This document shows positions 7,030 to 61,824 of a stretch of DNA of 64,000 nucleotides, piece after piece. The position numbers and the translations under genes were made by a program. Location: contig CAZOGI010000010.1 of the NCBI GenBank assembly GCA_964579435.1, positions 23,583 to 87,582 on the forward strand. Reading direction: 5' to 3'. The stretch's first letter is position 1, and every line of letters begins with the position of its first letter. This stretch comes from an uncultured Planctomycetales bacterium (GTDB lineage Bacteria > Omnitrophota > Gorgyraeia > Gygaellales > Profunditerraquicolaceae). The notes below the pieces were generated by a model that was not told the origin of the DNA, ran no database searches, and saw only the letters and a list, made by a program, of their open reading frames with translations.

Positions 7030-7475
7030 TCGACGGAGTTCAGGTCATTCCCTTGAAAAAAATATGCGACGAACGCGGCATGATCATGCACATGCTCAAA
7101 AAAACCGATCCGCACTTCGAGCAGTTCGGCGAGATATATTTCGCCACCGCTTATCCCGGGGTGGTCAAAGGCTGGCACGAGCATACCCGTCAGGTACAGA
7201 TGTACGCCTGTATCGTCGGCATGATCAAACTGGTCCTCTACGACAACCGGCCGAAATCGCCGACGATTCGGCAACTGGCGGAGCTCTTCATCGGAGAGGA
7301 CAACTACCAGCTCGTGCGCATCCCCACCGGCGTCATCAACGGCTGGAAGAACATCGGCACCGATACCGCGATCCTGGCGAACTGCTCCAGCCTGCCTCAT
7401 GAGCAGGACGAGATGCTGCGCTATGACCCGCACGGGGAAACCGTGCCGTACCGCTGGGAACGGGCCGACCGCTGA
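7026..7475 (+). CDS. RmlC-like cupin sugar epimerase (dTDP/CDP-4-dehydro-6-deoxyhexose 3,5-epimerase family)
   Basis: 149 aa. FGEIYFATAYPGVVKGWHEHTRQ cupin motif typical of the RmlC family. ATGA overlap with upstream gene. Confidence 0.65.
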   Translation: MIDGVQVIPLKKICDERGMIMHMLKKTDPHFEQFGEIYFATAYPGVVKGWHEHTRQVQMYACIVGMIKLVLYDNRPKSPTIRQLAELFIGEDNYQLVRIPTGVINGWKNIGTDTAILANCSSLPHEQDEMLRYDPHGETVPYRWERADR

Positions 7476-41757: not shown

Positions 41758-41868
41758 AGCGACTTGAGGAAATATTATAACATGAAAGGTCGCAGGGACA
41801 CAATGACCCTTGATACCAGCCTAAAATCCCATTGAGTTAACCGGCGGCGGTTGATAGAATAAGGGCAG
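41758..41868. promoter_or_regulatory. Divergent intergenic promoter region
   Basis: 111-bp AT-enriched spacer between the divergently transcribed operons (minus 40774-41757 and plus 41869 onward). Contains TATAAC-like and TTGATA elements. Confidence 0.4.
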
Positions 41869-44705: not shown

Positions 44706-46093
44706 CCGGACAAACAATCCTCCTGGTCAATCCCGGTCACCGCGAATGGGCGCGTGTGCTGCCGCTGGGCATCGCCTACGTTGCCGCTGCCGCCCGGAAA
44801 GCGGGATTCCCGGTGCGCACGATCGACGCAACCGCCGAACGACTTTCACCGCAGGCGCTGGCCCTGCGATTGAAAAAACTCAAACCTGCGGTCCTGGGGA
44901 TCACCGCGACCACGGTGCAGATCGCCTCTGCCTGGGAGATCGCCCGCCTGGCAAAAGAGCATGATCCCGGCTGCGTCACGGTGCTGGGAGGAGTCCACCC
45001 CAGCGCGCTGCCCGAGGAGAGCCTGGGACAGCCGTCTGTTGATTTCGTCTGCAGGGGAGAGGGAGAAGCAACTTTCGTTTCTTTACTCAGCGCCCTTTCC
45101 TCCCGCACTCACCCAGGGTCGGTCCAGGGGATATCCTTCCGCTCAAACGGCTCTGTCGTGCACACGCCGGACCGCCGGCTCGTTCCCGATCCGGACCTCT
45201 TCGCGTTTCCGGCGCGGGAGCTCTTTGACTTCCCCCGCCGGTACCAAAGCCCCCTTGCCCTGCGAAGAAGATGCGCGACGATCCTGACCAGCAGGGGCTG
45301 CCCGGGCACCTGCACCTTCTGCAACAAAAATATCTCCGGAAGCGTCTTTAGGCCGCGCAGCCCCGCCTCGGTCATCGAAGAGATGGAATCGCTCATCCGC
45401 ACCTTCGGCATCCAGGAATTCCATATTGCCGACGACTGTTTCAGCTGGGACATGCAGCGGGTCATGGACCTCTGCGCGCTGATGCGCAAACGCATCCCCG
45501 CCATCCGCTGGGCCTGCACCAACGGCATCCGCGTCGACCGCTCGACCAAACCGTTCTTTCGCGAAATGAAAGCCGCCGGCTGTTACCGCGTCTCCTTCGG
45601 CGTCGAATCGGGAGACGAGGCGCTGCTGAAGCGCATCGGCAAGAATATAGACCAGGAATCGATACGCAGGGCCGTCTCGCTTGCCCAAAGCGCAGGACTC
45701 GTCACCATCTGCTTTTTTATGCTCGGCAATCACGGCGAGACTGCCGCTCACGCTCAAAAAACCATCGAATTCGCCCGCTCTCTGCGCACCGATTACGCCC
45801 AGTTCACGCTGGCCATGCCCTATCCGGGAACCGCATTTTTCAGGCAGCTGGAGAAAGAAGGCCGGATCCGCAGCCGCGATTGGAGGAGGTATTCGGTGTA
45901 CGGGCCGGACATTCCCTACGAGCCGGCCGGGATGAGCGCAGAGGAATTGCTGGGCTTCTACAGACAGGCGTACCGCGCCTTTTATCTGCGGCCACGGCAG
46001 ATCGCCTTTCTCCTTTCCCGGCGGCTGCGCCTCGGCGCCGGCATCGGCAGCTTCGTACGCTCATCAGCGGAGGTCTTGCGCCGTGCCCGATAA
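44702..46093 (+). CDS. B12-binding domain radical SAM protein (class B rSAM) 3
   Basis: MTGQTILLVNPG N-terminus. TSRGCPGTCTFC motif. ATGA overlap with gene 2. Confidence 0.8.
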   Translation: MTGQTILLVNPGHREWARVLPLGIAYVAAAARKAGFPVRTIDATAERLSPQALALRLKKLKPAVLGITATTVQIASAWEIARLAKEHDPGCVTVLGGVHPSALPEESLGQPSVDFVCRGEGEATFVSLLSALSSRTHPGSVQGISFRSNGSVVHTPDRRLVPDPDLFAFPARELFDFPRRYQSPLALRRRCATILTSRGCPGTCTFCNKNISGSVFRPRSPASVIEEMESLIRTFGIQEFHIADDCFSWDMQRVMDLCALMRKRIPAIRWACTNGIRVDRSTKPFFREMKAAGCYRVSFGVESGDEALLKRIGKNIDQESIRRAVSLAQSAGLVTICFFMLGNHGETAAHAQKTIEFARSLRTDYAQFTLAMPYPGTAFFRQLEKEGRIRSRDWRRYSVYGPDIPYEPAGMSAEELLGFYRQAYRAFYLRPRQIAFLLSRRLRLGAGIGSFVRSSAEVLRRAR

Positions 46094-47799: not shown

Positions 47800-49704
47800 A
47801 TGCAAGGATACCCCATGACTGATCGCCGATTCAACCTTTTCATCAGCTTCGCCTGCCTGGCGCTCATCGCGCTCTCCTACGCCAACACTCTCAAGGCGGA
47901 TTTCCACTTCGACGATTTCGACAGCATCGTCAATGTCCCGGCGATCCGCAGCCTGACCAATTTCAAGGAGATATTCCGTCTCACCGAACGGCCGCTCGTC
48001 AACTACTCCTTCGCCGTCAACTACTTCTTCGGAAAACTCAACGTCACCGGATTCCATCTGGTCAATATCGGGCTCCACGCGCTCTGCACGCTGCTGGTCT
48101 TTTTCTTCCTGCGGGAATTGCTTGGCGTACCCCTGCTTAAGGAACGCTACAGCCAAAAGATTGGCCGGTGGCTCTCTGCGGGAAGCGCGTTTCTTTTTGC
48201 CGTCCATCCGGCCAGAGTGGAAGCGGTCACGTATATTACCGCCCGATCGGAGAGCATGGCGTCGGCTTTTTATCTGCTCTCCTGCCTTTGCTTCCTGAAA
48301 TCCCTCTCTGACATCAAGAGAGAGCGGCTCTTCCAAGCGGCGGCAATTGTAGCCAGCGCCATCGGCATGGCAACCAAGGAGATCGTCGCCACACTGCCGG
48401 CGTCCCTGCTGCTGCTCGATTATCTTTTTGTGTGCGCCGGGAATCCCGCCTGCCTGAAGAAACGCGCCCGGTTCCATGCCTCGATGTTCGCCACGATCGC
48501 CGTTACCGTTGCGCTGGTGCTCTATTCGGACAAATGGGGAGCAGCCGGACTGGGTAACCCGAACCTGCACACGCCCCTTCAACACGCCCTCAGTGGTTTG
48601 CGCGCGTACGTCTATTATCTGGCCCTTTTCATCTTTCCGGCACCCGGACGCCTTAACTTCGACACCGATTTTGCCCTCTCCCGCAGCTTCACCGAACCGC
48701 AGGTCCTCGGCGCAAGCCTCTTCATCGCCGCGGCACTTGTCTTGGCCCTGTACGAATCGCGCCGGTGCCCCTTGATCACCTTCGCGATCTTGTGGTATTT
48801 TCTCCTGCTTCTGCCGACCACCAGCTTCATTCCGATCGAAGACCTCGTCTATGAGCGCAGGATGTATCTGGCCGCGCTCGGGCCCGGGCTCATCACGCTC
48901 CTTGCCCTCGGGCCGCTTCCCCGACGCCTGCGCATCGGCATTCTGGCGCTGACAGTCGGGATCCTCTCCCTGTGGACCATCCAGCGCAACGCCATCTGGC
49001 GAACCGAATTCTCCCTCCTGAGCGATTCGCTCAAAAAATCTCCGTACAAAACCCGCACGCTTACGAATATGGGCATGTTTTACCTCACCAAACAACAGGA
49101 CTTAGCTGCTGCCCGCTCCTACCTTGCCAGGGCCTTGCACTACAACCCGGATGCGGCAAACAGCCTGCTGAATATGGGCGTGGTGCAGCTGTTGGAGAAC
49201 AATCTGTCCGGGGCAGAACAACTTTTCCGTAAATTGCTTTATCTCTTTCCGGACGCAACCGCCGGCTATGTCAACCTGGCGACCGTATACCGCCGCTCCG
49301 GCCGGCTCCGGGAAGCAGAAGAGCTTCTACGAACCGCAATCACCATCGAACCTTCCTTCGCGGAAGCGTACGGGAATCTGGGCGTTATTCTGGCAAGCAA
49401 AAGAGAATTTGAGGAAGCCGAAAAGGCGCTTATTAAATCAATCGCTCTGAATCCCGATCTGCCTGAGCCGCACCATAGCCTGGGGCTCATCTATCAGAAG
49501 AGGGGTGACCATAAAAACGCTATCACTCAATTCCAGAGAGCCGTCACTTTGCAGCCTCAATTTTCAAAGGCTCTTTACAGCATGGGCATCTCGTACCTGG
49601 CGCTTGGAGATAAAGAAAAAGCAGAGGAGACGTATGCGAAGCTCCTGAAAATCAATCTTGATCTGGCGCTAAACTTGTTGTCCAGGATTGAGTTAAGACT
49701 TTAG
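47800..49704 (+). CDS. TMTC-like DUF1736/GT-C membrane domain plus TPR repeats (third paralog)
   Basis: DFHFDDFDSIVNVPAIRS...PLVNYSFAVNY...GFHLVNIGLHAL parallels 34685-37456. C-terminal TPR repeats. The ORF opens at 47749; probable start is ATG 47800. Confidence 0.65.
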   Translation: MQGYPMTDRRFNLFISFACLALIALSYANTLKADFHFDDFDSIVNVPAIRSLTNFKEIFRLTERPLVNYSFAVNYFFGKLNVTGFHLVNIGLHALCTLLVFFFLRELLGVPLLKERYSQKIGRWLSAGSAFLFAVHPARVEAVTYITARSESMASAFYLLSCLCFLKSLSDIKRERLFQAAAIVASAIGMATKEIVATLPASLLLLDYLFVCAGNPACLKKRARFHASMFATIAVTVALVLYSDKWGAAGLGNPNLHTPLQHALSGLRAYVYYLALFIFPAPGRLNFDTDFALSRSFTEPQVLGASLFIAAALVLALYESRRCPLITFAILWYFLLLLPTTSFIPIEDLVYERRMYLAALGPGLITLLALGPLPRRLRIGILALTVGILSLWTIQRNAIWRTEFSLLSDSLKKSPYKTRTLTNMGMFYLTKQQDLAAARSYLARALHYNPDAANSLLNMGVVQLLENNLSGAEQLFRKLLYLFPDATAGYVNLATVYRRSGRLREAEELLRTAITIEPSFAEAYGNLGVILASKREFEEAEKALIKSIALNPDLPEPHHSLGLIYQKRGDHKNAITQFQRAVTLQPQFSKALYSMGISYLALGDKEKAEETYAKLLKINLDLALNLLSRIELRL

Positions 49705-49808
49705 TGAGGAGTGAGGAGTTAGGAGTTTGGAGTTTGGAGCTATGCTTTTAGTTCGTATTTTCTCCCAACTCCTAACTCCCTACCCCCAACTCCCTACTCC
49801 CAACTCCC
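49704..49808. repeat. Inverted arrays of heptamer repeats forming a long imperfect hairpin
   Basis: Left arm (GTGAGGA)2 GTTAGGA (GTTTGGA)2 at 49704-49739. Right arm (TCCCAAC/TCCTAAC/TCCCTAC)x6 at 49763-49808. The arms are mutually complementary with a roughly 23-nt loop. Lies immediately after the stop at 49702-49704. Confidence 0.7.
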
Positions 49809-49950
49809 GAATCACCTTGCCGCCTAAAATGAGCGATGGCATACTTTATAATAGGTAAGAAGATCGGCAACAAAAACCATGACACCAGAGACAAGAAAAC
49901 AAAAAAGAAAGTGACTCTTGAGAATAAAATAATATAATAATAGTTAAGCC
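49809..49950. promoter_or_regulatory. AT-rich promoter/leader region of the giant gene
   Basis: About 65-70% AT in a 63% GC background. TTTATAATAGG -10-like element. AT-rich tract TAAAATAATATAATAATAGTTAAGCC directly before ATG 49951. Confidence 0.45.
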
Positions 49951-52900
49951 ATGAAGAGCTTACCGACAAAGAAATTTTTCCGCACTTTTCTCATCCTGGG
50001 GATAACGACGCTCCTGTGCGCAACCCCGCATGCCCTTGCCGCAACCCGTTTCTATTTCGACGCCTCAACCGCAGCAGATGTCACTGCCTCCTATGACGCC
50101 GGCTGGGAATACCAATCCGAGGCAGGCCGCTACAAACTCAACAGGACCAAAGGCTCCTCCGCAATAACCATCGGCACCCAGATCGGCCCCTGGACCGCCG
50201 GCAGCGCCAACCAGGCCCTTGACCGCCAGTACATAAGCGATCCGATCGAAGCCCAGACCATAAGCGGCACGGTCAAAGGCCAGGTCATGTCGCGTGAATA
50301 CAACACCAGCGATAACGTGAACCGGATGTACATCACGGTCAAAGTCGTCTCCAACGACGGTTCCAGCGTGCGGGGGACACTCCTTGCCCTCAATACCTAT
50401 TACACGAATGCCGAACTGATCAGCAACGTAACCCACCGCAACGCCATCCTTGCCAATTCCGACACCGTCACCAACGTCACCGCGCAGCAGGGCGACCGCA
50501 TCCTCATCGAGATCGGCTTCGGCAGCTCGACAACCCAGACCACGCCCGAAGGCTCCTGCAAATGGGGGGAGAATGCATCCGACCTCCCGGAAAACGAAAC
50601 CCAAACAACCGACGGTGCGGGGTGGTTTGAGTTCTCCGCGGATATCACTTTCTATACTCCGCCCAAACCGCAATTCACCCAGAAAGCCTACCAGTGGGAG
50701 AATGACGATTCAACCTCAGGCGTCAACGCCAATTCACAGGCAGCCGAAGACAATACCGCCCTTACCGACGTGCGCATCGGACAGCGCCTCACCTGCAGGA
50801 TGCAGGTCGAGAACGACTCAACCGCCGCATCGAGCGACACCGTCTATCAGCTGCAGTGGGAGAACAACACCGATAACCCCGGGCGCTGGTTCCCGGTCGG
50901 CTACGGGACGCAGATCTCGTACGCAACCGGGCTCGCCGGCTTAAGCGGCGCCTCAACCGGCACCACCGCGCTCTGCGGAACCCCCACGTACACCATGGTC
51001 GCCGGCACCTGGCAGTCAGGGACGAGCCAGAACCCGCCCCACTCCATGGAGACGCAGCGAAGCGCGGAATTCTCTTTTGTCATCGACACCGCCAACGCAA
51101 AAGAAAATAAAGTCTATCGCCTGCGCCTCTTCGACAAAACAAACGCCCAGGCTTTCAATGCCTACACCGTCTATCCGCAGCTGACCACCGTCACCGCCGC
51201 CAACAACACCCTGCGCTACAGCAAAGAGCCACTCGATGCGGTGCAGAACACCTGGCGCATGGCCTCCTATCTGGACGAAACCGGCTATGACAACAGCGCC
51301 TCGGATAACTCGGTTTACGATTCGCTCCCCGCCCGGCGGCTTGCCCTTCGTGCGCAAGCCGACCTGACCTTTACCTCATTCGATGTTTCGCAATACCCGA
51401 CCTCGCAGATGGCCGTAGGCGTGGGAGACTTCAACAACGACGGCTACAACGACCTGCTCATGGGCGGCCAGCGCTACGCGACCTATGTCGGCCGGGCATA
51501 CCTTTATCTCGGCGGCAGCCCGATGGACAGCGTCTGTGACCTCACCATGCAGGCCGGTGCCCTCTACACCAATTCTTATTTCGGCTCCGCGGTCGCGGTC
51601 GGAGATATCAACAACGACAGTTTCGACGACGCCGTGGTCGGCAACTGGGGGTATTACCGTATGTACCTCTACTACGGCTCCACGACCATGAACAACGTCA
51701 TCGACATGACCTTTACCGGCGAAGCGACGAGCGACTACTACGGCTATTCGATCGGCATCAACGACGTCAACGGCGACAGCTTCAAGGATATCGTCACCAA
51801 CGCCCAGTGGTGGAATAACGGCCAGGGAAGACTCTACGTCTATTACGGCGGCACCACGATGAACAATGTTTGTGACCTGACGATAAACGGACAGGGAGGG
51901 GTGCACAACTATCCCGGGTTCGCCTGCGTCGTCGAAGACGTCAACAACGACAGTTTTGCCGACATACTCGTCAGCTCTCCCTACTACTACTATTCGGACA
52001 TGCGCGGCAGGGCATGGCTCTGGTACGGCGGAAACCCGATGGATGCCACCTGCGACAAGACCTTTACCGGAGAGACAACGGGCTCCTATTTCGGCGCTTC
52101 GGGATTATCGATCGGCGAAGTCAATAACGACGGCTTTAAGGACATCCTTATCGGAGCCTACGTCTACAGCTCCACGAAGGGCCGATCGTATCTTTTTTAT
52201 GGAGCGACCGGCACGAGCATGGATATAACCGCTGACAAAACCATCACCGGGAACGCGGGAGACTATCAGGGACAGGGAGAGCAGATCGTCGACGTCAATA
52301 ACGACGACTACGCTGACCTGGTCATCGGCGCCGATGCCTTCGGCAACAGCAGGGGAGTGGTCAAGATTTACTACGGCGGCGCCGACATGGACATCGTCGA
52401 AGACCTCAGCATCGCCACGGGCCAGACAGGCAACTATTTTTCCCAATCGGTCAATACGGGCGACCTGAACAACGACGGGGCCGCTGACCTGATCATCGGA
52501 GCCAACAGCTATCCGAGCCTCACCTACCAGGGCCGCGCCTGGGTTTATTACACCAAACCCCTCTTTGCCCCAACCCAGATCTTCGCCAAAAAGAACACCA
52601 ACAACACCGATTACATCGCCTTTGCCTGGAAAGGCAAAACCGACATGGCCGCAACTTCCGACAACATCATCGTCGAGGCTGCCCAGCAGACGGCGATGGA
52701 TGGCACTAACGACGAGACATTCACCGGAGAAGCGGGGAGCAATTTTTTCAGCAACTGTATCGCGCTTGCCGATTTCAACAACGACCATTACCAGGACCTG
52801 GTGCTGGGCGCCGACGGCTACAACAGCAACCAGGGCCGCGCCTATCTCTACTACGGCGGCACCGGCATAGTCGACACCGCCGCGGCACTTACGTTTAATT

Positions 52901-55900
52901 GTCCGGACACCGGCACCAATTATTTTGCGGGAGGCGGCTGGACCGTATCAACCGGGGACGTAAACGGGGACCTTTATGCCGACCTGCTCCTGGGGGCCGT
53001 CGGCTATAACACGAACATGGGCCGGGCTTTCCTGTACTTAAGCAAGCGCTTCGGCCTCATGGACGGCAGCCCTGACCTGACGCTCACCAGCCCGGCGACC
53101 GGCACAAACTCTTTCGGCAGGAACGCCGTCGGAGACGTCAACGGCGACGGTTTTGCCGATATGCTTATCGGTGCGCCCAGCTACGACACCAATAGGGGCC
53201 GGGTATACCTCTACTACGGCGCCTCAACTCCCGACGCCACTGCTGACCTGGTCCTCGCCGGCGAGACAACCGGAACCTATTTCGGCGACCGGATTGCGGT
53301 CAGTGACGTGAACGGCGATTATTTCTCGGACGTGCTGGTTATGGCTTATGCCTATGCCTCGACCCGCGGCAGGGCATACCTCTATTACGGCGGCACGACC
53401 ATGGATGCCACCTGTGACAAGACCTTTACCGGAGAAGCATCAAACACCAATTTCGGCCGCAGCGGCGGCATCGGCGATATCGATAACGACGGCTACGGCG
53501 ACGTCGTCATCGGGGCCAACCTGTACGCAACAAGCAGCGGCCGCGCCTATCTGTTCTGGGGCGCCACCAACATGGATGTCACCTGCGACAAAACCTTCAC
53601 CGGCGAAACAGCAAGCATACAGTTCGGCCAGGATGTCAGCATTTCCGACCTCAACGCCGACTCCTACGGGGATCTGGTCGTCACCGCCTACACCTGGAAC
53701 ACCAGCCAGGGCCGCGCCTATGTCTACAAAGGCGCCAGCCAGGCCTCCTTTGATACGACCTGTGACCTCACCTTAAGCGGCCTCACCACTACCGACAACT
53801 ACGGACGGGCCGCCCGCTCAGGCGATGTCAACAACGACGGATTCGCCGACCTGGTCGTCGGCGCCTACAATTACAACAGCGGACGCGGCCGGGCGTACCT
53901 CTATTACGGCGATACCGTCTCCTGGGTGACCCAGGCAACCGAAAGTTCCCTGGCAGCAGACACCCCCGGATGGATATACGCGTTCATCGATACCGACCCG
54001 AACCTCTATTACACGCCGGATAACTGGACGTATTGGCGGGTCTATCAGGCTCCGGGACAAGATACCAAAATTCTGGATATCGATTACGTGCAGTTCGACT
54101 TCCAGGCAACGGCGGTCAAGCTCATCTCTTTCTGGGCATTCGGCAAGGACGAAGAGGTCCAGGTCAGATGGGAAACCGCCTCTGAATCGCAGAACCTGGG
54201 CTTCAACCTCTACCGCTCGACATCCTCCGACGGAACTTACACCAAGATAAACGCAGGGATCATCTCCGGCCTCGGCAGCTCGCTGACCGGCAAAGAATAC
54301 TCCTTTACCGACGCCGATGTCTCAAACGGCCGCACCTACTACTACAAGCTGGAATCGATCGAGTTCACCGGCACCCGCGTCATGCACGGCCCCATCGAAG
54401 CGCATCCCGGGCTCGATGCCGACTCAGACGGCATGAGCGACGACTGGGAGGCGCATTACGGGCTCAACAGCGCTGACGCCTCGGACGCAGGGGCAGACCG
54501 CGACAGCGACGGACTGACGAATCTGCAGGAATACACCCTGGGCACCGACCCGACCCGCTCGGGCCAGGTAAGCGCAGGCGCAAGCGGCAGCGGCGGGCTC
54601 ACCGTCGTCTCCAGCGACTCAACCGGCATCACCCTGGAACTGCGCACCCCCGGGATCGAAAGCCGCACCGTCACCGTCAACAAACAAGCGTATCAATCCC
54701 TGAGCATCCCTGCCTATGCGCACGGCTATACGGCCATAAGCGCAAGCGCGCGCATGCCGGTCAAGCCGGTGATGCTTGCCCTGCCGCCCAATGCCGGCTG
54801 TTCCGTAGAAATCCTCAGCGAAGAGACGGAGATCTTCAGTAATTATACGGTAGAGCCGGTTACCACCTACACCCTGGAAGCGGATGCCAACGAAGAAGCG
54901 CTGCAATCGGGAGGCTTCGGCAAAACAGGACCGCTCGAGATAACGGTCGATCCGGCCGCGATCAACACCGTCTTCTATCAGCAGGACAGCAGCTATCCCG
55001 GGGAGCGCGCCGAGGTCGAATGGGTGGGAGATCTGCGCTCTCAGCGTATCGCCTGCCTGCGCCTGGCGCCGCTGCGCTTCAACCCGGCAAAGAAGGAGCT
55101 GACGATCTCCAAAGTCCTGCGCGTGCGGGTCACCTTTACCCAGGGAGGCGCTGCATCGGGAAACTGGCAGCTCTCCGAAACGGCCAAAAACGCGCGCATC
55201 AAGATCAAAACCGAAGGAGGCGGCATCCGCCGGCTTACCTGGACCGACCTGTATAACGCCGGCCTCACCGACGTGATCTGGTCCGACCCGCGACTCCTTT
55301 CCATGACCAACCTCGGCACGGAAATCGCTATCCGCGTCAAAGGCGAAGAGGACGGGATCTTCAATTTCGACGATTACGTGGAATTTTACGCCCGGGAAAT
55401 ACCGGCGCATTACGATGGATCGAGCCCCTACGCCGCGTATGCAAAATACTCTCCCCACAATGTTTACTTTTTGGGCTTTGGATCCTCCAACGGCAAACGC
55501 ATGGAGACGCGCGAAAGCAGCGCCAATGAAGGAAGCGTCTCGCCCGCGCGCTTCCGCCACACCGCCACCTTCGAGCAGAACGATTTTTACTGGAGCACCC
55601 GGGCGGGAGGGGAGCACGCAGACCGCTGGTTCTGGTCGCCTGCCCTCTGGGAAGACACGAGCCAGGAATACGCGCTGAACCTGCCCCATGTCGATGTCGA
55701 CAGCGCCGCCGAGACGGCAAGCGTCTCTTTGGTGTACTACCCGCTCCTGTACCTGCCGCAGCCCAGCGAAACCGCCAAAGCGACCGTCGCCCACGAAACA
55801 AGCGCAACCCTCAACGGCGTCTCCCTCGGCAGTGACACCTGGCAGGGCATGCAGGAACGCACCATCGAGGCGGAAATCGCACACGCCAGCCTTATTACCG

Positions 55901-57924
55901 GAAGCAACACCCTCAAGCTCGCGCACAAGAAAGTATCGCCTGCCGAGCACGACGCTCTTATCGCCAATTATTGCACGATCACCTACTGGCACACATTTGA
56001 GGCGGATTCGGACGCGCTCTCCTTCTCCTGCGCGAGCGAAACAGGGGACACCGCCGCATTCACGGTCACCGGCCTGACGACCCAGGAATGCTCTGCTTAC
56101 GATATTACCGATCCTGCCCAGCCGGTCGCCTTTTCCGGGCTCTCCGCGGTTTTCGACCCCGGAACCAACACCTACTGCGTTTCCTTCAAAGACGATATCC
56201 CGGCGGCGCAGGAGCGCCGTTATCTGGTGCTGGCCGACGCGCAAAAGACAGCCCCCGCGGCCCTTTCCTTCGTTGCCGCGCCGGCGCTTGACCTGAGCCT
56301 CGCCGGCAACCACGCCGATTACCTGATCATCACTCATTCCTCTTTTTCGGACGCCCTGGAGCCCCTCAAAAACCTGCACACCGCCCAGGCACTCGACGTG
56401 CAGATCATCGACATCGAAGATATCTATAACGCCTTCGCGTACGGGTTCCCGACGCCGCAGGCGGTCAAGGACTTCGTCAGCTACGCCTACGCGAACTGGA
56501 AAGGGCTCTGCCAAAAAACCTCGCCGCCCCGGGTCATGGCCCCGACGTACGTGCTCCTCGTCGGAGACGCCCACTACGATTACCGCGACAATCTCGGGAC
56601 CGGGCGCAGCATCTATGTGCCGACCTACCTCATTGCGGATCAACCCAATATCGGCGAGACCGCATCCGACAACTGGTTCGCCTGCATGGGGGGACAGGAG
56701 GATACCCTTGCGGATCTCTTTATCGGAAGGCTGCCGGTCAGGACAAACCAGGAGTGCCAGGCGGTAGTCTCCAAAACAATCGCCTACGCGGCACAGGAGG
56801 CCGGGGGAGCGTATACGCGGGCAACCTTCCTGGCCGATGTCGGCAGCGAATTCGAGCAGACCTGCGAGAGCCTCTCCGGCAAACTCTCCGCCGAAGTAAC
56901 CGGGCAAAAACTCTATTTGTCGGACTACCCCAGCGCCGCCTCGTTCGTCTCCGGACTCATCTCCTCCGTCAACAGCGGGACGCTCCTCTTGACCTATGTC
57001 GGCCACGCCGCAACCTATCTCTGGACCGCCGACGGCTCATTCGACACCGACTCCGTCGCCTCTCTGAACAACACCGCCGCCTTCCCGCTGGTCGTTTCCC
57101 TCGACTGCCTCGACGGCTACTTTATCAACCCCCAGGAACAGTACGAATCCCTCGCCGAGACCTTCCTGCGCAAATCCGGCTCCGGCGCCGTCGCCTGTTT
57201 CTCGCCCTCGGGCATGGGCATGCCGTCAAGCCATCTCATACTCGGCACCTATTTCTATAAAGCGCTCTTTGAGAGCGGCTCAACCCATCTGGGACAGGCG
57301 GCAACCGAAGCAAAACTCAATTATTTCGCCAGCACCGGCGCCGCCGGGCTGGACTTGGTGCATACCTATAACCTCTTGGGGGACCCGGCGCTCGCCCTGA
57401 AGATCCCGGCCGCTGCGTCCCAGACCGGCCAGACCGCCGTGACGACGACTGCCGCCGCGACAACTCAAACCGCAACAGAATCGGAATCCGCAACGACAAC
57501 GAGCGCGGAAACAGACGCCTTTACCTCGATCCTCGGCTCGGCGCTGGCCAACGTTGAAGAAGGCAAGAAATGGCGCGACGAAACCAAACAGGCCAAAGAC
57601 CCCCAGGACCCGGCAGAAACATCCGCGGAACCGCAGGGCGTCCTCGCGAAACTGCCGATCCCCAGGATCATCAAAGAGATCGTCAAGAAACAGAAGACGG
57701 CGCTGACGCAGCCAGCCGGCCAACCCGCGGCAACCGGTCTCACCCATGCGGATACCGCGCCGGAGGGAAGCGAATACGCTCAAGACGCAACAGTCCCGGA
57801 GCGTTCATCCGCCGTGCAGCAGAAATCCCCGCGCACGAATATCCTGCGCACCGTCATCGAAACAGTCTGGAAAGCTGTAGTCACCTTCTTCAAAAAACTC
57901 CTGGCCCTGATCCTGGGTAAATGA
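49951..57924 (+). CDS. Giant secreted multidomain protein: signal peptide, N-terminal beta-sandwich region, 14 FG-GAP (integrin-alpha-type) repeats, Asp-rich Ca-binding motif, peptidase C25 (gingipain-like) domain, Thr-rich linker, basic amphipathic C-terminus
   Basis: MKSLPTKKFFRTFLILGITTLLCATPHALA signal peptide. 14 copies of the [GD]D[VI]N[NG]D[GS][FY]xD[LV][LV][IV]G...GRAYLYYGG periodicity. DADSDGMSDDW...DRDSDGLTNLQEY TSP3-like motif. C25-like block HADYLIITHSSF...LDVQIIDIEDIYN...YVLLVGDAHYDY...TYVGHAATYLW...VSLDCLDGYF with His and Cys about 34 residues apart. Confidence 0.8.
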   Translation: MKSLPTKKFFRTFLILGITTLLCATPHALAATRFYFDASTAADVTASYDAGWEYQSEAGRYKLNRTKGSSAITIGTQIGPWTAGSANQALDRQYISDPIEAQTISGTVKGQVMSREYNTSDNVNRMYITVKVVSNDGSSVRGTLLALNTYYTNAELISNVTHRNAILANSDTVTNVTAQQGDRILIEIGFGSSTTQTTPEGSCKWGENASDLPENETQTTDGAGWFEFSADITFYTPPKPQFTQKAYQWENDDSTSGVNANSQAAEDNTALTDVRIGQRLTCRMQVENDSTAASSDTVYQLQWENNTDNPGRWFPVGYGTQISYATGLAGLSGASTGTTALCGTPTYTMVAGTWQSGTSQNPPHSMETQRSAEFSFVIDTANAKENKVYRLRLFDKTNAQAFNAYTVYPQLTTVTAANNTLRYSKEPLDAVQNTWRMASYLDETGYDNSASDNSVYDSLPARRLALRAQADLTFTSFDVSQYPTSQMAVGVGDFNNDGYNDLLMGGQRYATYVGRAYLYLGGSPMDSVCDLTMQAGALYTNSYFGSAVAVGDINNDSFDDAVVGNWGYYRMYLYYGSTTMNNVIDMTFTGEATSDYYGYSIGINDVNGDSFKDIVTNAQWWNNGQGRLYVYYGGTTMNNVCDLTINGQGGVHNYPGFACVVEDVNNDSFADILVSSPYYYYSDMRGRAWLWYGGNPMDATCDKTFTGETTGSYFGASGLSIGEVNNDGFKDILIGAYVYSSTKGRSYLFYGATGTSMDITADKTITGNAGDYQGQGEQIVDVNNDDYADLVIGADAFGNSRGVVKIYYGGADMDIVEDLSIATGQTGNYFSQSVNTGDLNNDGAADLIIGANSYPSLTYQGRAWVYYTKPLFAPTQIFAKKNTNNTDYIAFAWKGKTDMAATSDNIIVEAAQQTAMDGTNDETFTGEAGSNFFSNCIALADFNNDHYQDLVLGADGYNSNQGRAYLYYGGTGIVDTAAALTFNCPDTGTNYFAGGGWTVSTGDVNGDLYADLLLGAVGYNTNMGRAFLYLSKRFGLMDGSPDLTLTSPATGTNSFGRNAVGDVNGDGFADMLIGAPSYDTNRGRVYLYYGASTPDATADLVLAGETTGTYFGDRIAVSDVNGDYFSDVLVMAYAYASTRGRAYLYYGGTTMDATCDKTFTGEASNTNFGRSGGIGDIDNDGYGDVVIGANLYATSSGRAYLFWGATNMDVTCDKTFTGETASIQFGQDVSISDLNADSYGDLVVTAYTWNTSQGRAYVYKGASQASFDTTCDLTLSGLTTTDNYGRAARSGDVNNDGFADLVVGAYNYNSGRGRAYLYYGDTVSWVTQATESSLAADTPGWIYAFIDTDPNLYYTPDNWTYWRVYQAPGQDTKILDIDYVQFDFQATAVKLISFWAFGKDEEVQVRWETASESQNLGFNLYRSTSSDGTYTKINAGIISGLGSSLTGKEYSFTDADVSNGRTYYYKLESIEFTGTRVMHGPIEAHPGLDADSDGMSDDWEAHYGLNSADASDAGADRDSDGLTNLQEYTLGTDPTRSGQVSAGASGSGGLTVVSSDSTGITLELRTPGIESRTVTVNKQAYQSLSIPAYAHGYTAISASARMPVKPVMLALPPNAGCSVEILSEETEIFSNYTVEPVTTYTLEADANEEALQSGGFGKTGPLEITVDPAAINTVFYQQDSSYPGERAEVEWVGDLRSQRIACLRLAPLRFNPAKKELTISKVLRVRVTFTQGGAASGNWQLSETAKNARIKIKTEGGGIRRLTWTDLYNAGLTDVIWSDPRLLSMTNLGTEIAIRVKGEEDGIFNFDDYVEFYAREIPAHYDGSSPYAAYAKYSPHNVYFLGFGSSNGKRMETRESSANEGSVSPARFRHTATFEQNDFYWSTRAGGEHADRWFWSPALWEDTSQEYALNLPHVDVDSAAETASVSLVYYPLLYLPQPSETAKATVAHETSATLNGVSLGSDTWQGMQERTIEAEIAHASLITGSNTLKLAHKKVSPAEHDALIANYCTITYWHTFEADSDALSFSCASETGDTAAFTVTGLTTQECSAYDITDPAQPVAFSGLSAVFDPGTNTYCVSFKDDIPAAQERRYLVLADAQKTAPAALSFVAAPALDLSLAGNHADYLIITHSSFSDALEPLKNLHTAQALDVQIIDIEDIYNAFAYGFPTPQAVKDFVSYAYANWKGLCQKTSPPRVMAPTYVLLVGDAHYDYRDNLGTGRSIYVPTYLIADQPNIGETASDNWFACMGGQEDTLADLFIGRLPVRTNQECQAVVSKTIAYAAQEAGGAYTRATFLADVGSEFEQTCESLSGKLSAEVTGQKLYLSDYPSAASFVSGLISSVNSGTLLLTYVGHAATYLWTADGSFDTDSVASLNNTAAFPLVVSLDCLDGYFINPQEQYESLAETFLRKSGSGAVACFSPSGMGMPSSHLILGTYFYKALFESGSTHLGQAATEAKLNYFASTGAAGLDLVHTYNLLGDPALALKIPAAASQTGQTAVTTTAAATTQTATESESATTTSAETDAFTSILGSALANVEEGKKWRDETKQAKDPQDPAETSAEPQGVLAKLPIPRIIKEIVKKQKTALTQPAGQPAATGLTHADTAPEGSEYAQDATVPERSSAVQQKSPRTNILRTVIETVWKAVVTFFKKLLALILGK

Positions 57925-58745
57925 CAACCCGTCTTTTTTGCATCGAAATAGCCGATTATCCCTTCGGCATAGAAGCGCCCGAACCCCTCTGGGGCGCATT
58001 TCAGGAAACCTATCTGCCGTTCCTGAGCGCCCGGGAGCCGCGCTACCGCATCCGCGCCGAGATCGACCCCACCGCGCAACCCGTTGACCTCTGGGAGGGG
58101 ATGACCCTGGATAAGACGACGCTCTCGATCAGCGATGACACCTCGAGTGCGCGTTTCGATTTCAAGACAAAAGAAGGGACGATCCGCCTGAACCCCGCCA
58201 GACTCCTGGTGCCGTTGGGCGCCTTCCTGCGCAATATCGTCACTGTGCTCTTGAGCCTCCAGGATGACGGCCTCCTGATGCATGCCTGCGGGGTCCTGTA
58301 CGAAGAGGAAGCATTCCTCTTCACCGGGCGTTCCGGCGCCGGAAAAACGACGGTATCGCGCGCGCTCGCCCATTTGCCGACGATCTCCGACGATCTTTTG
58401 CTGGTCAAGCCCACCCCCGGAGGATTCGGCGTCTGGCCGCACCCGCGCTGGGGAGACCGCCAGAGCGGATCATTCCAAAACCGGCCGCACCGGATCAGCA
58501 GTATTTACCTCTTGTGCCAGGATACCGGGGTTTTCGTGAAAAGGCTCGGCCCGGCCCGGGCCACCGCGCACCTCTTGACCGTTCCGCACGTCCCCGTCAA
58601 CCGCATCCCCGCCGCGCGCATCCTGGAAAGCACCCAACGCCTGGCGGAGACGGTCCCGGTGTACGAACTGCACTTCCGGCCCGACCCGTCGTTCTGGGAA
58701 AAGATACTGCAGGAGAGAGAAAGGATTGTCGCTGCATGGAAATGA
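57921..58745 (+). CDS. HPr-kinase-related P-loop protein (HprK C-terminal-domain-like)
   Basis: FTGRSGAGKTTVSRAL P-loop in an HprK-like context. ATG 57921 overlaps the giant gene stop at 57922-57924. Confidence 0.6.
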   Translation: MTTRLFCIEIADYPFGIEAPEPLWGAFQETYLPFLSAREPRYRIRAEIDPTAQPVDLWEGMTLDKTTLSISDDTSSARFDFKTKEGTIRLNPARLLVPLGAFLRNIVTVLLSLQDDGLLMHACGVLYEEEAFLFTGRSGAGKTTVSRALAHLPTISDDLLLVKPTPGGFGVWPHPRWGDRQSGSFQNRPHRISSIYLLCQDTGVFVKRLGPARATAHLLTVPHVPVNRIPAARILESTQRLAETVPVYELHFRPDPSFWEKILQERERIVAAWK

Positions 58746-59017
58746 AATCAGCAATCCCGTTCAAGAACGAGAAGACCGCTTCCCGCATCATCCAGGACCA
58801 GGCCGTGATCGTCATCCTGGAAAACCAGGAGACGGTGGTCCTCAACGAGAGCGCCTCGCGCATCTGGGAACTAAGCGACGGGAAACGCACGCTCGGGGAA
58901 ATCGCCCGCATACTGGAAGAGGAATTTTCGGTATCCGCGCAAACCGCCCTGCAGGACGCCGCCGCCTTCCTGGGCGAAGCGGAAGGCAAGGGGATCTTTT
59001 CACTCAACCGCCCATGA
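58736..59017 (+). CDS. PqqD-family protein (RiPP recognition element-like peptide chaperone)
   Basis: 93 aa. QAVIVILENQETVVLNESASRIWELSDGKRTLGEIARIL is a typical PqqD/RRE fold signature. Confidence 0.7.
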   Translation: MEMKSAIPFKNEKTASRIIQDQAVIVILENQETVVLNESASRIWELSDGKRTLGEIARILEEEFSVSAQTALQDAAAFLGEAEGKGIFSLNRP

Positions 59018-60036
59018 CCCCGACCGGCTTCACCGATATCTTTGCGCACAGCATGCGGCAGAACCTCTGCCTGATCGCGCACCTGGAGCTCACCCACGCC
59101 TGCAACCTGCGCTGCCGGCACTGTTACTGCGTCCCCGACGCGGACCGGCCGGAGTGCTCGTTCGGGGAAATCCGCTCGGTCCTGCGGCAGCTCAAAGAAG
59201 CGGGAACGCTCTTTTTGTGCCTCAGCGGAGGCGAACTGCTCTGCAGAGCGGACATCTTCGAGATACTCTCCTGCGCGCGCGCCGAAGGGTTCGCCCTGCG
59301 CCTGATGACCAACGGCACGCTCATCGACGAAACGGCAGCCGCGCGCATCGCAGCCGCAGCCGCGGTTACGGTCGACATGAGCATCTACGCGGCAAATCCC
59401 CGGCTGCACGACGCGGTGACGGGAAAACCCGGATCGTTGCACCTGACCCTGCAGGCAGCAGCGCTCCTGAGGGAACGGGGGATACGCGTCGTGTTCAAGT
59501 TCATCGTCATGAAAGACACCGTCGGGGAATTCAAAAACATCCGCGCGCTCTGCCAAGAGAGAGGGATCGATTTCATCTACGACGTCTGCCTGGTCGAGCG
59601 CACCGACGGCGACGCCCGGCCGCTGCAGTACCGCCTGGACAAAGAAGGAATCAAATCGTTCCTGCGCCGGAACGCGCTGTCTCCCGCGGCATCGCCCGAC
59701 GGGTCGGTTTTGTGCACCGCCGGACTCAACAACATCTTCATCTCTCCGCAGCTGGACGTCTATCCCTGCATCGGCATCCGTGAAAAGATCGGCTCCCTGC
59801 GCCAAGGTTCCCTGAAGGACATCTGGGAATCCGCGCCGCTGCTGCGGAGGCTGCGCACCCTCACCGATGCCGAACTGAACGCCTGCTCTTCCTGCGCGAA
59901 GCGCGCCTACTGCTTCCGCTGCGCCGGCCTGGCGCTGGAAGCGTCAAACGACCTCTGCGCCCGCTCGCCGTTCGACTGCGAAGTTGCCCAGGCGCTCGCG
60001 GAAACCGCACAAAGAGAAAAGGAGACCGTCCTATGA
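59014..60036 (+). CDS. Radical SAM / SPASM domain peptide-maturase-like protein
   Basis: CNLRCRHCY CxxxCxxC. C-terminal SPASM cysteines (VLCTAG...VYPC...CSSCAKRAYCFRCAG). ATGA overlap with the PqqD stop. Confidence 0.8.
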   Translation: MTPTGFTDIFAHSMRQNLCLIAHLELTHACNLRCRHCYCVPDADRPECSFGEIRSVLRQLKEAGTLFLCLSGGELLCRADIFEILSCARAEGFALRLMTNGTLIDETAAARIAAAAAVTVDMSIYAANPRLHDAVTGKPGSLHLTLQAAALLRERGIRVVFKFIVMKDTVGEFKNIRALCQERGIDFIYDVCLVERTDGDARPLQYRLDKEGIKSFLRRNALSPAASPDGSVLCTAGLNNIFISPQLDVYPCIGIREKIGSLRQGSLKDIWESAPLLRRLRTLTDAELNACSSCAKRAYCFRCAGLALEASNDLCARSPFDCEVAQALAETAQREKETVL

Positions 60037-60194
60037 ACAAGAAAAATCAACCCGCCGCGAAACGACCGTACACCAAACCCGCTATCGCCTTCAGCAAAAA
60101 GATCGAGATCATCTCCGCGGTATGCGATTCCGGCTTCGGCGGACTGAGCAACTGCCGCAAATCATCGACGCCCTGCCTGCGTTCCCGGGCCTAA
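60033..60194 (+). CDS. Unannotated 53-aa Cys-containing small peptide, candidate precursor/substrate peptide
   Basis: ATG 60033 overlaps the rSAM stop (ATGA). AAAGGAGA Shine-Dalgarno sits 10 nt upstream. Product MNKKNQPAAKRPYTKPAIAFSKKIEIISAVCDSGFGGLSNCRKSSTPCLRSRA has a basic N-terminus and a C-terminal core with Cys residues. It is below the 60-aa ORF track cutoff. Confidence 0.35.
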   Translation: MNKKNQPAAKRPYTKPAIAFSKKIEIISAVCDSGFGGLSNCRKSSTPCLRSRA

Positions 60195-60207: not shown

Positions 60208-61824
60208 GTGGACCGTTCAGACCCCGAGACCGTCTCGCTCTCGCTGGTACGCGACAGCCTCAATGTCCGCGGCGGGACGATCACCCTCACGATCGCCGGA
60301 TCCTGCATGTCGCCGCTGATCCGGGCAGGAGACCGCGTCACCATACGATCGGTTTCTTTCGCTGAACTCACTCCCGGCGACATAATCGCCTTCCAGGACC
60401 GCAACCTGCTCTACGCGCACCGCCTGACCGGCAAAGATCCCCGCACGCAGAATCTGCACACCCAGGCGGACCGGTCATGGCAGACGGACATCGCGTTCTC
60501 CTTTTCCCAGGTGTTGGGAAAAGTGACCGCCGTCTCGAAACAGGGCAGGACCCTGCATCTTGACCGCTTCCCCGGCCGGCAGATCAACCGTGCCTATGGC
60601 GCCTGCCGCCGCCTGCTTCAGGCGATCACGCTCCCCGCGCGAGCGGCGCATGAGGCCCTGCGCCGGAGGCAGGGGACAGAGGAGCGGCAAGCACTCTTTG
60701 CGGTTGTCTCTGTCGCCAGCCGCGGCTTTCTGGAGACCCCGTTCCCGCTGCCGGAGCGCATCGATGAGCCCCTCTTTGGGGAACAGGCGCGCGCCCAAAC
60801 ACTGGCACCCTGGTGCTTTTGCGTACTGCGCGATCGGCAGCGCGACCACGATGTTTTTTCTCCCACTCTGCGCGAAACGCTCAGGCTCGAATATTACGAA
60901 ACCTTTTCCCTGAATGCCCAATCCCTCCCCGGGACACAGGAACTCTTCGCTCACCTGCGCGCCCAGGAGATCGGATTCCTCGTCTTCAAAGGCCTGGTGC
61001 TGGCCCAGGGCGTCTATGCGGATATCGGAGCGCGCCGCCTGGGAGACACCGATATCCTCATCAGAAGGGAGGACCTCTCCCGTCTCGACCGGGTCCTGCG
61101 CGAGAGAGGCTTTCGTTGTCCGGTTCCCCTCACGGCAGTCCCGGAGGCGCCCAACGCGTACCGCAATGCGCTGCTGTATTTGCCTCCCGACGGATCCCTG
61201 CAGAGACCGCTGCATGTGTACTGGCACTGGGTCAATCTCGCCGCGTTTTCCCGGCGCCTCCCCGGGTCGATACGGATGGAACGGATCTGGCAGGACCGCA
61301 TCAAGGTCGACATCGCCGGCATCTGCCTGGAGACGTTCTCCTGGGAACATCACCTCATCTACCTGTCCATGCACGCGCTCGCCCATTCCTATTTCCCGCT
61401 CAGCACCCTTATCGACATCGCCGGGCTGCTGACGAAACGCCGAAAAGACCTCGAGTGGAACGGCATCCTCAAAGACGCCCAGACCTTCGGCCTGGAGCGG
61501 CCGCTCTTGCTTGCCCTCACCCTGGCCCGGGAGATCTGCTCCGCCCCGGTTCCCGCCGCGGCGTTAAGCCGGCTACGGCCAACCCGCCTGAGCTTATTCG
61601 AAAGACGCTTCATCGCAGACGCGCAGCGGTTACGGCTGAAAACGGGAAAAGAGTGGCTCCTTTACCTGGGCATGAACGACACGCCGCTTGAGCGCCTCGA
61701 TTTTATCCTCCGCGCGCTTTTTCCGCCCGCGCACCTTCTTGCCCTCATCCGCCAGCAGCCGCGCGCCGCCCTCGCCGCATCGTACGGGAAACGCCTGGTC
61801 GCGGCAATGCGCAGCGCCTCCTAA
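60208..61824 (+). CDS. S24/S26 (signal-peptidase/LexA-like) peptidase domain fused to an uncharacterised nucleotidyltransferase-family domain
   Basis: N-terminus GSCMSPLIRAGDRVTI...PGDIIAF...YAHRLTGK...QVLGKVTAV parallels SPase I boxes B-E. The C-terminal 350 aa resemble NTP_transf_5-type nucleotidyltransferases (VFKGLVLAQGVYADIGARRLGDTDILIRRED). GTG start at 60208. Confidence 0.5.
   Translation: MDRSDPETVSLSLVRDSLNVRGGTITLTIAGSCMSPLIRAGDRVTIRSVSFAELTPGDIIAFQDRNLLYAHRLTGKDPRTQNLHTQADRSWQTDIAFSFSQVLGKVTAVSKQGRTLHLDRFPGRQINRAYGACRRLLQAITLPARAAHEALRRRQGTEERQALFAVVSVASRGFLETPFPLPERIDEPLFGEQARAQTLAPWCFCVLRDRQRDHDVFSPTLRETLRLEYYETFSLNAQSLPGTQELFAHLRAQEIGFLVFKGLVLAQGVYADIGARRLGDTDILIRREDLSRLDRVLRERGFRCPVPLTAVPEAPNAYRNALLYLPPDGSLQRPLHVYWHWVNLAAFSRRLPGSIRMERIWQDRIKVDIAGICLETFSWEHHLIYLSMHALAHSYFPLSTLIDIAGLLTKRRKDLEWNGILKDAQTFGLERPLLLALTLAREICSAPVPAAALSRLRPTRLSLFERRFIADAQRLRLKTGKEWLLYLGMNDTPLERLDFILRALFPPAHLLALIRQQPRAALAASYGKRLVAAMRSAS

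Follow-up and report, generated by a model that had tools for sequence, protein, structure and literature searches.

What might a giant secreted protein that ends in a C25 cysteine peptidase do inside a bacterial polysaccharide locus, directly ahead of genes that look suited to modifying a small peptide? The question is raised by a gene at positions 49951-57924 (+) of a 64,000-nucleotide stretch of DNA from an uncultured Planctomycetales bacterium placed by GTDB in the Omnitrophota (assembly GCA_964579435.1, contig CAZOGI010000010.1, positions 23,583 to 87,582; the whole stretch is termed the window here). The encoded protein has a signal peptide for export, an intact clan-CD dyad and a PorU-like fold, and is the product of the first gene of an overlap-linked unit. 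We consider it moderately probable that it acts as an extracytoplasmic C25 peptidase partnered with the peptide-modification cassette of a polysaccharide/biofilm locus, because its closest relatives almost always adjoin the same cassette and because genes in the window are joined by ATGA overlaps.

Architecture of the giant C25 protein

The gene and the parts of its product are, from 5' to 3':

49951-57924, + strand: giant C25 gene, an uninterrupted ATG-to-stop open reading frame (ORF) of 2657 amino acids (aa)
49951-50040, + strand: Sec-type signal peptide (residues 1-30, ...PHALA/AT) with no lipobox
50041-51390, + strand: N-terminal region (residues 31-480) with no family assignment
51391-52590, + strand: FG-GAP beta-propeller 1 (repeats 1-7, residues ~481-880) with Ca-binding D-x-N-x-D loops; predicted local distance difference test (pLDDT) 53-82, a model of moderate quality
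52726-53985, + strand: FG-GAP beta-propeller 2 (repeats 8-14, residues ~926-1345), confidently modeled (pLDDT 80-92)
54100-54405, + strand: Fn3-like beta-sandwich (W-x-T...GFNLYRS...YYYKLE) that starts the conserved C-terminal module, with invariant columns in alignment A1
54406-54561, + strand: TSP3-like Asp-rich Ca motif (DSDGMSDDWE...DSDGLTNLQEY, residues 1486-1537), below threshold for TSP3_bac (PF18884)
54601-55146, + strand: prodomain-like Propeptide_C25 domain (PF08126, residues 1551-1732), Pfam E 1.8e-17
55147-56319, + strand: beta-sandwich domains (residues 1733-2123) matching the PorU region N-terminal to the catalytic domain, in a confident all-beta model
56320-57399, + strand: Peptidase_C25 (PF01364) catalytic domain (residues 2124-2483), recognized by Pfam, dyad and fold
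57406-57555, + strand: Thr/Ala-rich linker (residues 2486-2535), with 14 Thr and 13 Ala in 51 residues
57556-57648, + strand: post-C25 motif F..IL...LANVE...KWRD..K, which recurs in relatives
57835-57921, + strand: basic amphipathic C-terminal helix with Trp and Phe (last 28 residues), hydrophobic moment 0.52-0.57

A sequence-only reading of the window had proposed a C25 domain that keeps the His (YVGHA) and Cys (SLDCLDG) dyad positions, and this was borne out by a full-length Pfam match and by alignment of both residues with the dyads of RgpB and PorU. The Peptidase_C25 profile was covered from position 1 to 374 of 374 (E 1.2e-77, 262.2 bits against a cut-off of 23). YVGH2352 (His codon 57004-57006) aligned with YTGH of RgpB (His211) and YAGH of PorU, and SLDC2386 (Cys codon 57106-57108) with DVAC of RgpB (Cys244) and ATC of PorU. 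In alignment A1, the catalytic GH (G968 H969) is invariant in all five sequences, and Cys2386 is kept in the four that reach that far, the fifth (P0037) being truncated. The Fn3-like domain at the start of the module is likewise kept in all close relatives. An AlphaFold model of residues 1540-2500, computed from an input alignment of 33 relatives (pLDDT 88.6; predicted template modeling (TM) score, pTM, 0.89), takes the C25 fold and, when searched against PDB by Foldseek, gave PorU (6za2) as its best match (E 9e-31 over 846 columns). The catalytic fold matched 1cvr, 4ief and 4rbm with E-values of 2.5e-19 to 4.8e-17 and target TM scores of 0.62-0.69; for RgpB, the comparison proposed beforehand, the target TM was 0.67-0.69, and for Kgp the TM was 0.61-0.62. 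The prodomains of RgpB and Kgp separately matched the prodomain-like domain (TM 0.75), which, by analogy with these enzymes, suggests synthesis of the protein in latent zymogen form.

The description "gingipain-like" holds at the level of the family, but the nearest characterized relative is PorU by sequence E-value, fold and NCBIfam alike. Against the sequences of solved structures, PorU 6za2 scored best (E 9.2e-15) and RgpB was marginal (E 3e-3), and the best NCBIfam matches were PorU (273.1 bits, cut-off 420, with the alignment covering residues 1790-2503) and PorU2 (208.8 bits, cut-off 450), both below cut-off. The module layout, in which a prodomain-like domain is followed by beta-sandwiches and a caspase-like C25 domain, is the PorU architecture. 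The giant protein is a member of the C25 family that is nearer to PorU than to the gingipains and is not a PorU orthologue. That it might nonetheless be one, serving a type IX secretion system (T9SS) as C-terminal signal peptidase/sortase, is highly improbable: PorU ranks first in the NCBIfam, PDB sequence and fold comparisons, but the bit scores fall far under the curated cut-offs, the protein has no T9SS C-terminal domain, true PorU-like proteins lie outside the window clade in a tree of catalytic domains, and the named relatives come from metagenome-assembled genomes (MAGs) of Omnitrophota, Kiritimatiellae and Desulfobacterales and not from Bacteroidota. PorU orthology was rejected on score, C-terminal domain and taxonomic setting.

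With PorU of the Porphyromonas gingivalis T9SS (PDB 6za2; NF033707; PorU2, NF052324), the window protein shares the C25 family, the His-then-Cys dyad and the multidomain layout before the catalytic domain, and both would be extracytoplasmic enzymes linked to surface glycan biology, the location of the window protein being predicted. The two are only 15% identical, however; PorU retains the T9SS C-terminal domain that the window protein lacks, whereas the latter is extended by an N-terminal region of 1350 residues that includes the two FG-GAP propellers, and ends in a different tail, and the genomic partner of PorU is the PorV/Q/Z attachment complex where that of the window protein is the peptide-modification cassette. 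The gingipains RgpB and Kgp (MEROPS C25, clan CD; 1cvr, 4ief, 4rbm, 5mun) have in common with it the caspase-like fold, equivalents of the dyad and a homologous prodomain-like domain. They differ in that similarity to the window protein is marginal (E 3e-3, 16-19% identity) and that the window protein has ~390 residues of beta-sandwiches between the prodomain-like and catalytic domains, with neither haemagglutinin/adhesin domains nor a T9SS C-terminal domain.

The Asp-rich motif had been described as thrombospondin-type-3-like. What remains of this is a sub-threshold, motif-level resemblance to TSP3_bac (21.5 bits, cut-off 25, E 2.2e-4): no profile rose above threshold, and eukaryotic TSP_3 (PF02412) had no match in the giant protein in the Pfam search. 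The motif (DGMSDDWE) is widespread in secreted proteins and dominated a scan of the genome contigs, in which only locus L001 matched the whole module.

At the other end of the protein, the signal peptide agrees with the proposal that the protein is secreted, and residues 12-31 form its sole transmembrane-like segment. Residues 31-480 had no match in the Pfam and NCBIfam searches, and within a second AlphaFold model, of residues 236-1385 (overall pLDDT 56.9), the part covering residues 236-485 is unusable (pLDDT ~25). Beyond this region, Pfam FG-GAP (PF01839) matched 14 stretches (E 1.3e-79), corresponding to repeats with D/E-x-N/D-x-D loops spaced by ~57 residues, and these are arranged as two sets of seven because an extra ~45 residues separate repeats 7 and 8. 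The second model matched the seven-bladed headpieces of integrin alpha chains (TM 0.66-0.70), so that Pfam, repeat spacing and an integrin-like model fold agree on two seven-bladed propellers with 14 Ca-loop repeats, as first described. The likeness to integrin alpha FG-GAP propellers thus lies in the 14 repeats with D-x-N-x-D-G Ca loops and in the superposition of the propeller; in contrast to proteins of the integrin alpha type and to bacterial FG-GAP/VCBS proteins, the propellers here stand in tandem, are fused to a peptidase and have no integrin beta partner.

The C-terminal tail also agrees with its first description, composition and hydrophobic moment confirming a Thr/Ala-rich linker and a basic amphipathic C-terminus. 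No T9SS C-terminal domain (Por_Secre_tail/TIGR04183-type), PEP-CTERM or LPXTG signal was found at E <= 1 in Pfam and NCBIfam, in line with the claimed absence of such sorting signals. The last 150 residues matched no NCBIfam family, including amphi-Trp (TIGR04354), at E <= 10 (a limit to be read with the HMMER filters, which drop most matches above ~0.1), and in Pfam gave one weak chance match only (Histone, E 0.013). The motif F..IL...LANVE...KWRD is C-terminal in P0034, P0035, P0227, P0229 and the L085 protein and internal in P0036, and comparable amphipathic end helices with Trp and Phe were seen in P0233 and in the C25 proteins of L082 and L084. The helix of the window protein is possibly an in-plane membrane or surface anchor.

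The tails of C25 relatives vary by lineage. Those of the C25 proteins at loci L086-L090 and L075-L077 carry GGGCF(I/V)(A/S)TA(AYGS), unlike the window tail, and in L087-L090 (and L076/L077) the GGGCF motif is followed by a hydrophobic helix and basic residues; we take this tail to resemble a CFI-box-type C-terminal sorting domain. At loci with two C25 genes (L100, L116, L118-L120 and L132; L095 and L104), several of the C25 proteins end in the short conserved tail (F/Y)LP(L/I)..K.Y, possibly a sorting signal specific to the lineage.

Relatives of the C25 module and the downstream cassette

When residues 1384-2500 served as the query, relatives matching the module along its full length, Fn3-like domain to C25, were recovered. 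The top-ranking one was P0034, a "C25 family cysteine peptidase" from an Omnitrophota MAG (41% identity by BLASTP, 43% in a later alignment), followed by P0035 to P0042. An exhaustive search gave 5348 representative clusters at E <= 1e-30, many of 1000 to >6000 residues. Judged from these alignments, the conserved unit is the C-terminal ~1100 residues, from the Fn3-like domain through C25, and the first ~1350 residues (the 31-480 region and the two propellers) are a lineage-specific, variable, putative binding region. In relatives, N-terminal extensions of 900-5000 residues run straight into the same Fn3-like module start and contain LamG, Fn3 arrays, beta-helix-like repeats or no recognizable domain. 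Strong FG-GAP repeats were found in one of 284 collected C25 proteins, that of the window (P0336 gave a weak match only), and FG-GAP was absent from every other ORF of the sampled loci; in precomputed Pfam annotation, FG-GAP-type domains occur together with C25 also in the distant P0091 (with a T9SS C-terminal domain) and in P0042. The architecture had been singled out as unusual. This stands for the double FG-GAP propeller but not for the giant size with a C-terminal C25 domain, which is ordinary for the clade.

The near-uniqueness of the FG-GAP and C25 combination is also what could favor an assembly artefact or pseudogene joining an FG-GAP gene to a C25 gene. The probability of this is close to negligible: the frame is unbroken and the base composition even along the ORF, with no frameshift, an identical 2657-aa protein is held at NCBI (P0001, from a 92.6-kb contig), and the long N-terminal extensions of relatives lead directly into the same start of the Fn3-like module. 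The gene was accordingly accepted as the intact 2657-aa ORF that had been proposed, and the artefact was rejected on ORF, composition, NCBI record and the architecture of relatives.

The genes that follow are:

57921-58745, + strand: ScmC/HprK-like P-loop protein, with an ATGA overlap with the giant-gene stop; homologues carry Pfam ScmC (PF27840)
58736-59017, + strand: PqqD-family peptide-binding protein of 93 aa, with a 10-base overlap with the ScmC-like gene; orthologues carry PF05402
59014-60036, + strand: radical S-adenosylmethionine (SAM)/SPASM enzyme of 340 aa, counted from the ATG at 59014, with an ATGA overlap with the PqqD gene
60033-60194, + strand: candidate precursor peptide of 53 aa, with an ATGA overlap with the radical SAM gene, a leader with PY.KP and a core with three conserved Cys
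60208-61824, + strand: S24/S26-like peptidase fused to NTP_transf_5, after a 13-base gap from the peptide gene, with no transmembrane segment
61915-63846, + strand: Wzc-type chain-length determinant/tyrosine autokinase, after a 90-base gap from the S24-NTP_transf_5 gene

The coupling of the giant gene to its downstream neighbors, claimed previously, is seen in the 4-base ATGA overlap with the first gene of the cassette. None of the cassette proteins of the window reached the curated NCBIfam cut-off of a SynChlorMet/HprK-related model (TIGR04248-04251, TIGR04352-04355), the scores being 23.8 against 125 for ScmC, 18.7 against 200 for HprK_rel_B, 15.8 against 200 for HprK_rel_A, 17.5 against 100 for ScmD and 100.5 against 400 for ScmE; the PqqD-family protein scored 43.8 bits against TIGR03859 (cut-off 46). 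The orthologues of the cassette carry the broader Pfam families ScmC (PF27840), PqqD, Radical_SAM and SPASM, and for the 53-aa peptide neither Pfam nor NCBIfam has a family.

The three closest homologues with genomic context (P0034 at L074, P0035 at L078 and P0036 at L079; 41, 38 and 35% identity) all have the downstream cassette of the window, in the order C25, ScmC, PqqD, radical SAM/SPASM, small ORF, and S24 and/or NTP_transf_5. The S24-like and NTP_transf_5 proteins have a gene each in L074 and L079 and are encoded as a fusion in L078, L108 and L112, and in L074 the cassette is continued by genes for Wza, Wzc and Wzy. Scanning metagenomes with the module alignment gave 80 loci, whose ORFs were all searched with hidden Markov models built from four cassettes. 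Counting the window and the earlier loci, cassette genes adjoin C25 in 33 of ~62 loci with a long C25 match. Their order varies (C25-S24-ScmC-PqqD-radical SAM-NTP_transf_5; C25-ScmC-peptide; radical SAM-ScmC-S24-C25), and two paralogous C25 genes flank S24-PqqD or PqqD-radical SAM-ScmC-S24 at L100, L116, L118-L120 and L132, and at L095 and L104. In a neighbor-joining tree of catalytic domains, with true PorU-like proteins as the outgroup, nine of the 11 members of the window clade are cassette-linked, one of the two exceptions having no flanking DNA, and one other clade has no cassette. The co-occurrence of orthologues with the HprK-like and PqqD genes, which had been suggested as a check, is therefore stronger than anticipated, in that synteny holds across many divergent contigs, but it is not obligatory.

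The small ORFs of L074 (6307-6465), L078 (8349-8489) and L079 (~7020-7172) are homologous to the 53-aa peptide, sharing a leader-like region (..KPY.KP.I....IE.LSAVC..) and three conserved Cys. Recognizably homologous peptides, in the corresponding position, were found in 12 loci, the window included; the conserved ~50-aa ORF, directly after the radical SAM/SPASM gene, was noted at L081, L083, L086-L090, L108 and L112 as well as in these three. The divergent members have the PY.KP motif in common and bear Cys, often with a Ser or Thr at the C-terminus. With these features, the ~50-aa ORF has the look of a precursor to a modified peptide that is so far undescribed.

Homologues of the cassette were also seen in other settings. 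In L161 (7185-12762; Myxococcota MAG, GCA_039030075.1), NTP_transf_5, PqqD, radical SAM, a 61-aa peptide, ScmC and an ABC2 transporter are encoded within a Wzy/GT/AsnB polysaccharide locus with no C25 gene, and the tie between cassette and polysaccharide is therefore independent of the peptidase. In L162 (2736-10825), a 1900-aa FG-GAP/PQQ-type propeller protein with no C25 domain is encoded directly before a PY.KP-type peptide of 61 aa, PqqD, radical SAM/SPASM and ScmC, so that the cassette also pairs with giant propeller proteins that have no peptidase. A third ScmC homologue stands alone beside a sugar nucleotidyltransferase.

These distributions bear on a different explanation, in which the protein is a stand-alone secreted adhesin-protease whose propellers bind a ligand and whose C25 domain degrades matrix or foreign proteins, the cassette being merely co-regulated and sharing no pathway with it. 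The occurrence of C25 relatives with no cassette and of cassettes with no C25 would fit this, as would the very large size of the family (the 5348 clusters noted above) and the resemblance of its N-terminal regions, with their LamG, Fn3 and beta-helix-like repeats, to variable adhesin passengers. Against it, immediate adjacency persists across highly divergent contigs despite reshuffled order, including the two-C25 loci, co-regulation alone rarely keeps direct adjacency at 30-40% protein identity, and in the window the giant gene overlaps the first cassette gene by four bases. We regard this explanation as unlikely, though substantial enough to be kept in view.

Proposed role of the peptidase and its putative partner cassette

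If the giant protein is partnered with the cassette, as we prefer to read the locus, the 53-aa peptide would first be bound by the PqqD-family protein and its Cys residues then cross-linked in the cytoplasm by the radical SAM/SPASM enzyme, and its C-terminal region may be phosphorylated and glycosylated through the ScmC/HprK-like protein and the NTP_transf_5 protein. This proposal draws on two known groups of systems. SynChlorMet cassettes (ScmC, ScmD/PqqD, ScmE/F) resemble the window in pairing ScmC/HprK-like, PqqD and radical SAM/SPASM proteins, and the tailoring pair of lasso peptides such as paeninodin and pseudomycoidin (an HPr-kinase homologue and a nucleotidyltransferase) resembles the ScmC/HprK-like protein and the NTP_transf_5-peptidase fusion. 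In lasso clusters the kinase places a phosphate on the C-terminal Ser, to which hexoses are then added by the nucleotidyltransferase, an enzyme that in some cases forms a fusion with the leader protease (PMC8498205). Unlike these systems, the window cassette has no lasso cyclase, scores below the curated cut-offs and has a precursor family with no model.

The soluble S24-like domain would be the obvious candidate for the leader peptidase, which would leave an extracytoplasmic step for the C25 enzyme. A role of the C25 enzyme itself as the leader peptidase of the cassette was also considered and is weakened by this soluble S24-like peptidase. By analogy with the gingipains and PorU, the Cys2386 thiolate would attack a peptide bond to form an acyl-enzyme, which either water (protease) or an amine (transpeptidase) might then resolve. 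The C25 step could then consist in further processing of the exported peptide, in PorU-style attachment of peptide or protein to a glycan, or in action on proteins of the surface or matrix. Targeting of the enzyme would fall to the propellers and the unassigned N-terminal region, and the amphipathic tail may hold it on a membrane surface.

The most specific form of this proposal takes the cassette-linked C25 enzyme as a PorU-style transpeptidase outside the Bacteroidota and independent of T9SS, which would cleave the exported peptide, cross-linked and possibly phospho-glycosylated, and join peptide or matrix protein covalently to the exopolysaccharide that the surrounding locus makes. PorU, itself a C25 enzyme, removes a C-terminal signal and also links the newly formed C-terminus to anionic lipopolysaccharide (PMC11285876). 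For the window protein we hold this specific activity to be improbable. In a related reading, the giant enzyme may take up the cross-linked peptide as a small subunit or as its regulator.

Several observations weigh against a partnership between peptidase and cassette. C25 relatives occur with no cassette at L075-L077, L080 and throughout one clade of the tree, and the cassette occurs with no C25 at L161 and L162. The peptide may not need C25, because the cassette's own S24-like peptidase could remove its leader. A signal peptide is absent from the 53-aa peptide, and the cassette of the window is adjoined by no exporter gene, ABC2 transporter genes adjoining the cassette in L074 and L161 only. 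The S1 specificity is not readable from the low-identity alignments to RgpB: the residue aligned to RgpB Asp163 (S1) is not conserved among close relatives, in a part where the alignment, at 18-19% identity, is unreliable. The window clade is, moreover, biochemically uncharacterized. The literature searched contained no description of a C25 peptidase linked to a SynChlorMet cassette or to one resembling those of peptides that are made on the ribosome and modified after translation (RiPP-like/SPASM/PqqD).

The sequence-only reading had also offered the giant protein as a substrate or scaffold of the modification enzymes. In this case its tail would be phosphorylated or cross-linked before Sec export, or the protein would assemble with the cross-linked peptide as a small subunit. 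There are precedents for both: radical SAM/SPASM enzymes such as the anaerobic sulfatase-maturing enzymes can modify proteins that are exported afterwards, and QhpD cross-links the small subunit QhpC, which joins a periplasmic enzyme with a propeller subunit. The post-C25 motif F..IL...LANVE...KWRD is common to cassette-linked relatives and internal in P0036, and the L162 cassette follows a giant propeller protein that has no C25, both of which speak for it. The motif is present in only about eight proteins, however, and many cassette-linked C25 proteins are without it, whereas every well-sampled cassette has a conserved gene for a small Cys peptide immediately behind the radical SAM gene or close to it, and its product has a typical leader-type motif suited to PqqD binding. 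Because this conserved three-Cys peptide gene follows the radical SAM gene, the peptide is the likelier substrate, and a substrate or scaffold role of the giant protein, now weakened, appears distinctly improbable.

Surrounding locus and meaning of the finding

The gene content of the 64-kb window confirms the earlier placement of the giant gene in an exopolysaccharide/polysaccharide locus. It comprises epimerases, dehydratases, many glycosyltransferases (GT2, GT4 and PMT_2), an aminotransferase, a deacetylase, asparagine synthase, Wzy_C, an initiating transferase, TPR proteins, three B12-radical SAM proteins and the Wzc-type kinase. Directly 5' of the giant gene (41869-46093, + strand) lie three consecutive B12-binding radical SAM genes followed by two GT2 genes and a TPR protein gene, beside which, on the opposite strand, are a gene for a DUF6895 protein (40774-41757) and an ORF of 218 aa that belongs to no family (41775-42434). 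Further upstream (32483-34717, + strand), a 744-aa protein with a spermidine-synthase-like domain adjoins the Wzy_C gene, its N-terminal region matching membrane-type polyamine aminopropyltransferases.

Two features precede the giant gene:

49715-49780 (within intergenic 49703-49815), + strand: long, imperfect inverted repeat/hairpin between the upstream TPR gene and the giant gene
49911-49938, + strand: sigma-70-like promoter match (GTGACT, 16-nt spacer, TATAAT; 10/12), a consensus match only

The arms of the hairpin consist of short tandem units of the GGAGTT/GGAGTGA type and their complements, and its predicted RNA fold has an energy of -42.5 kcal/mol (z = -4.3 against shuffles). The hairpin is probably a transcription-unit boundary. 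An AT-rich stretch lies 3' of it, and the promoter-like site ends 13 nt before the giant-gene ATG, which is preceded by no obvious Shine-Dalgarno sequence.

To our knowledge, C25 peptidases are known almost entirely from the Porphyromonas gingipains and the T9SS sortase PorU. The window gene represents a very large, uncharacterized environmental branch of the family that has the PorU-like architecture and no T9SS features, and within it a known family appears in a new form, as a rare FG-GAP fusion inside a cassette-linked, non-T9SS clade. What is new is that this branch is repeatedly tied, across several phyla, to a peptide-modification cassette within polysaccharide loci, which would give an orphan protease family a defined candidate substrate in the ~50-residue peptide. 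If the link is functional, it would constitute a testable new system joining modified peptides and the biofilm matrix and would show whether C25 sortase-like chemistry reaches beyond T9SS; were the transpeptidase reading true, it would be a new system for conjugating peptides to polysaccharides.

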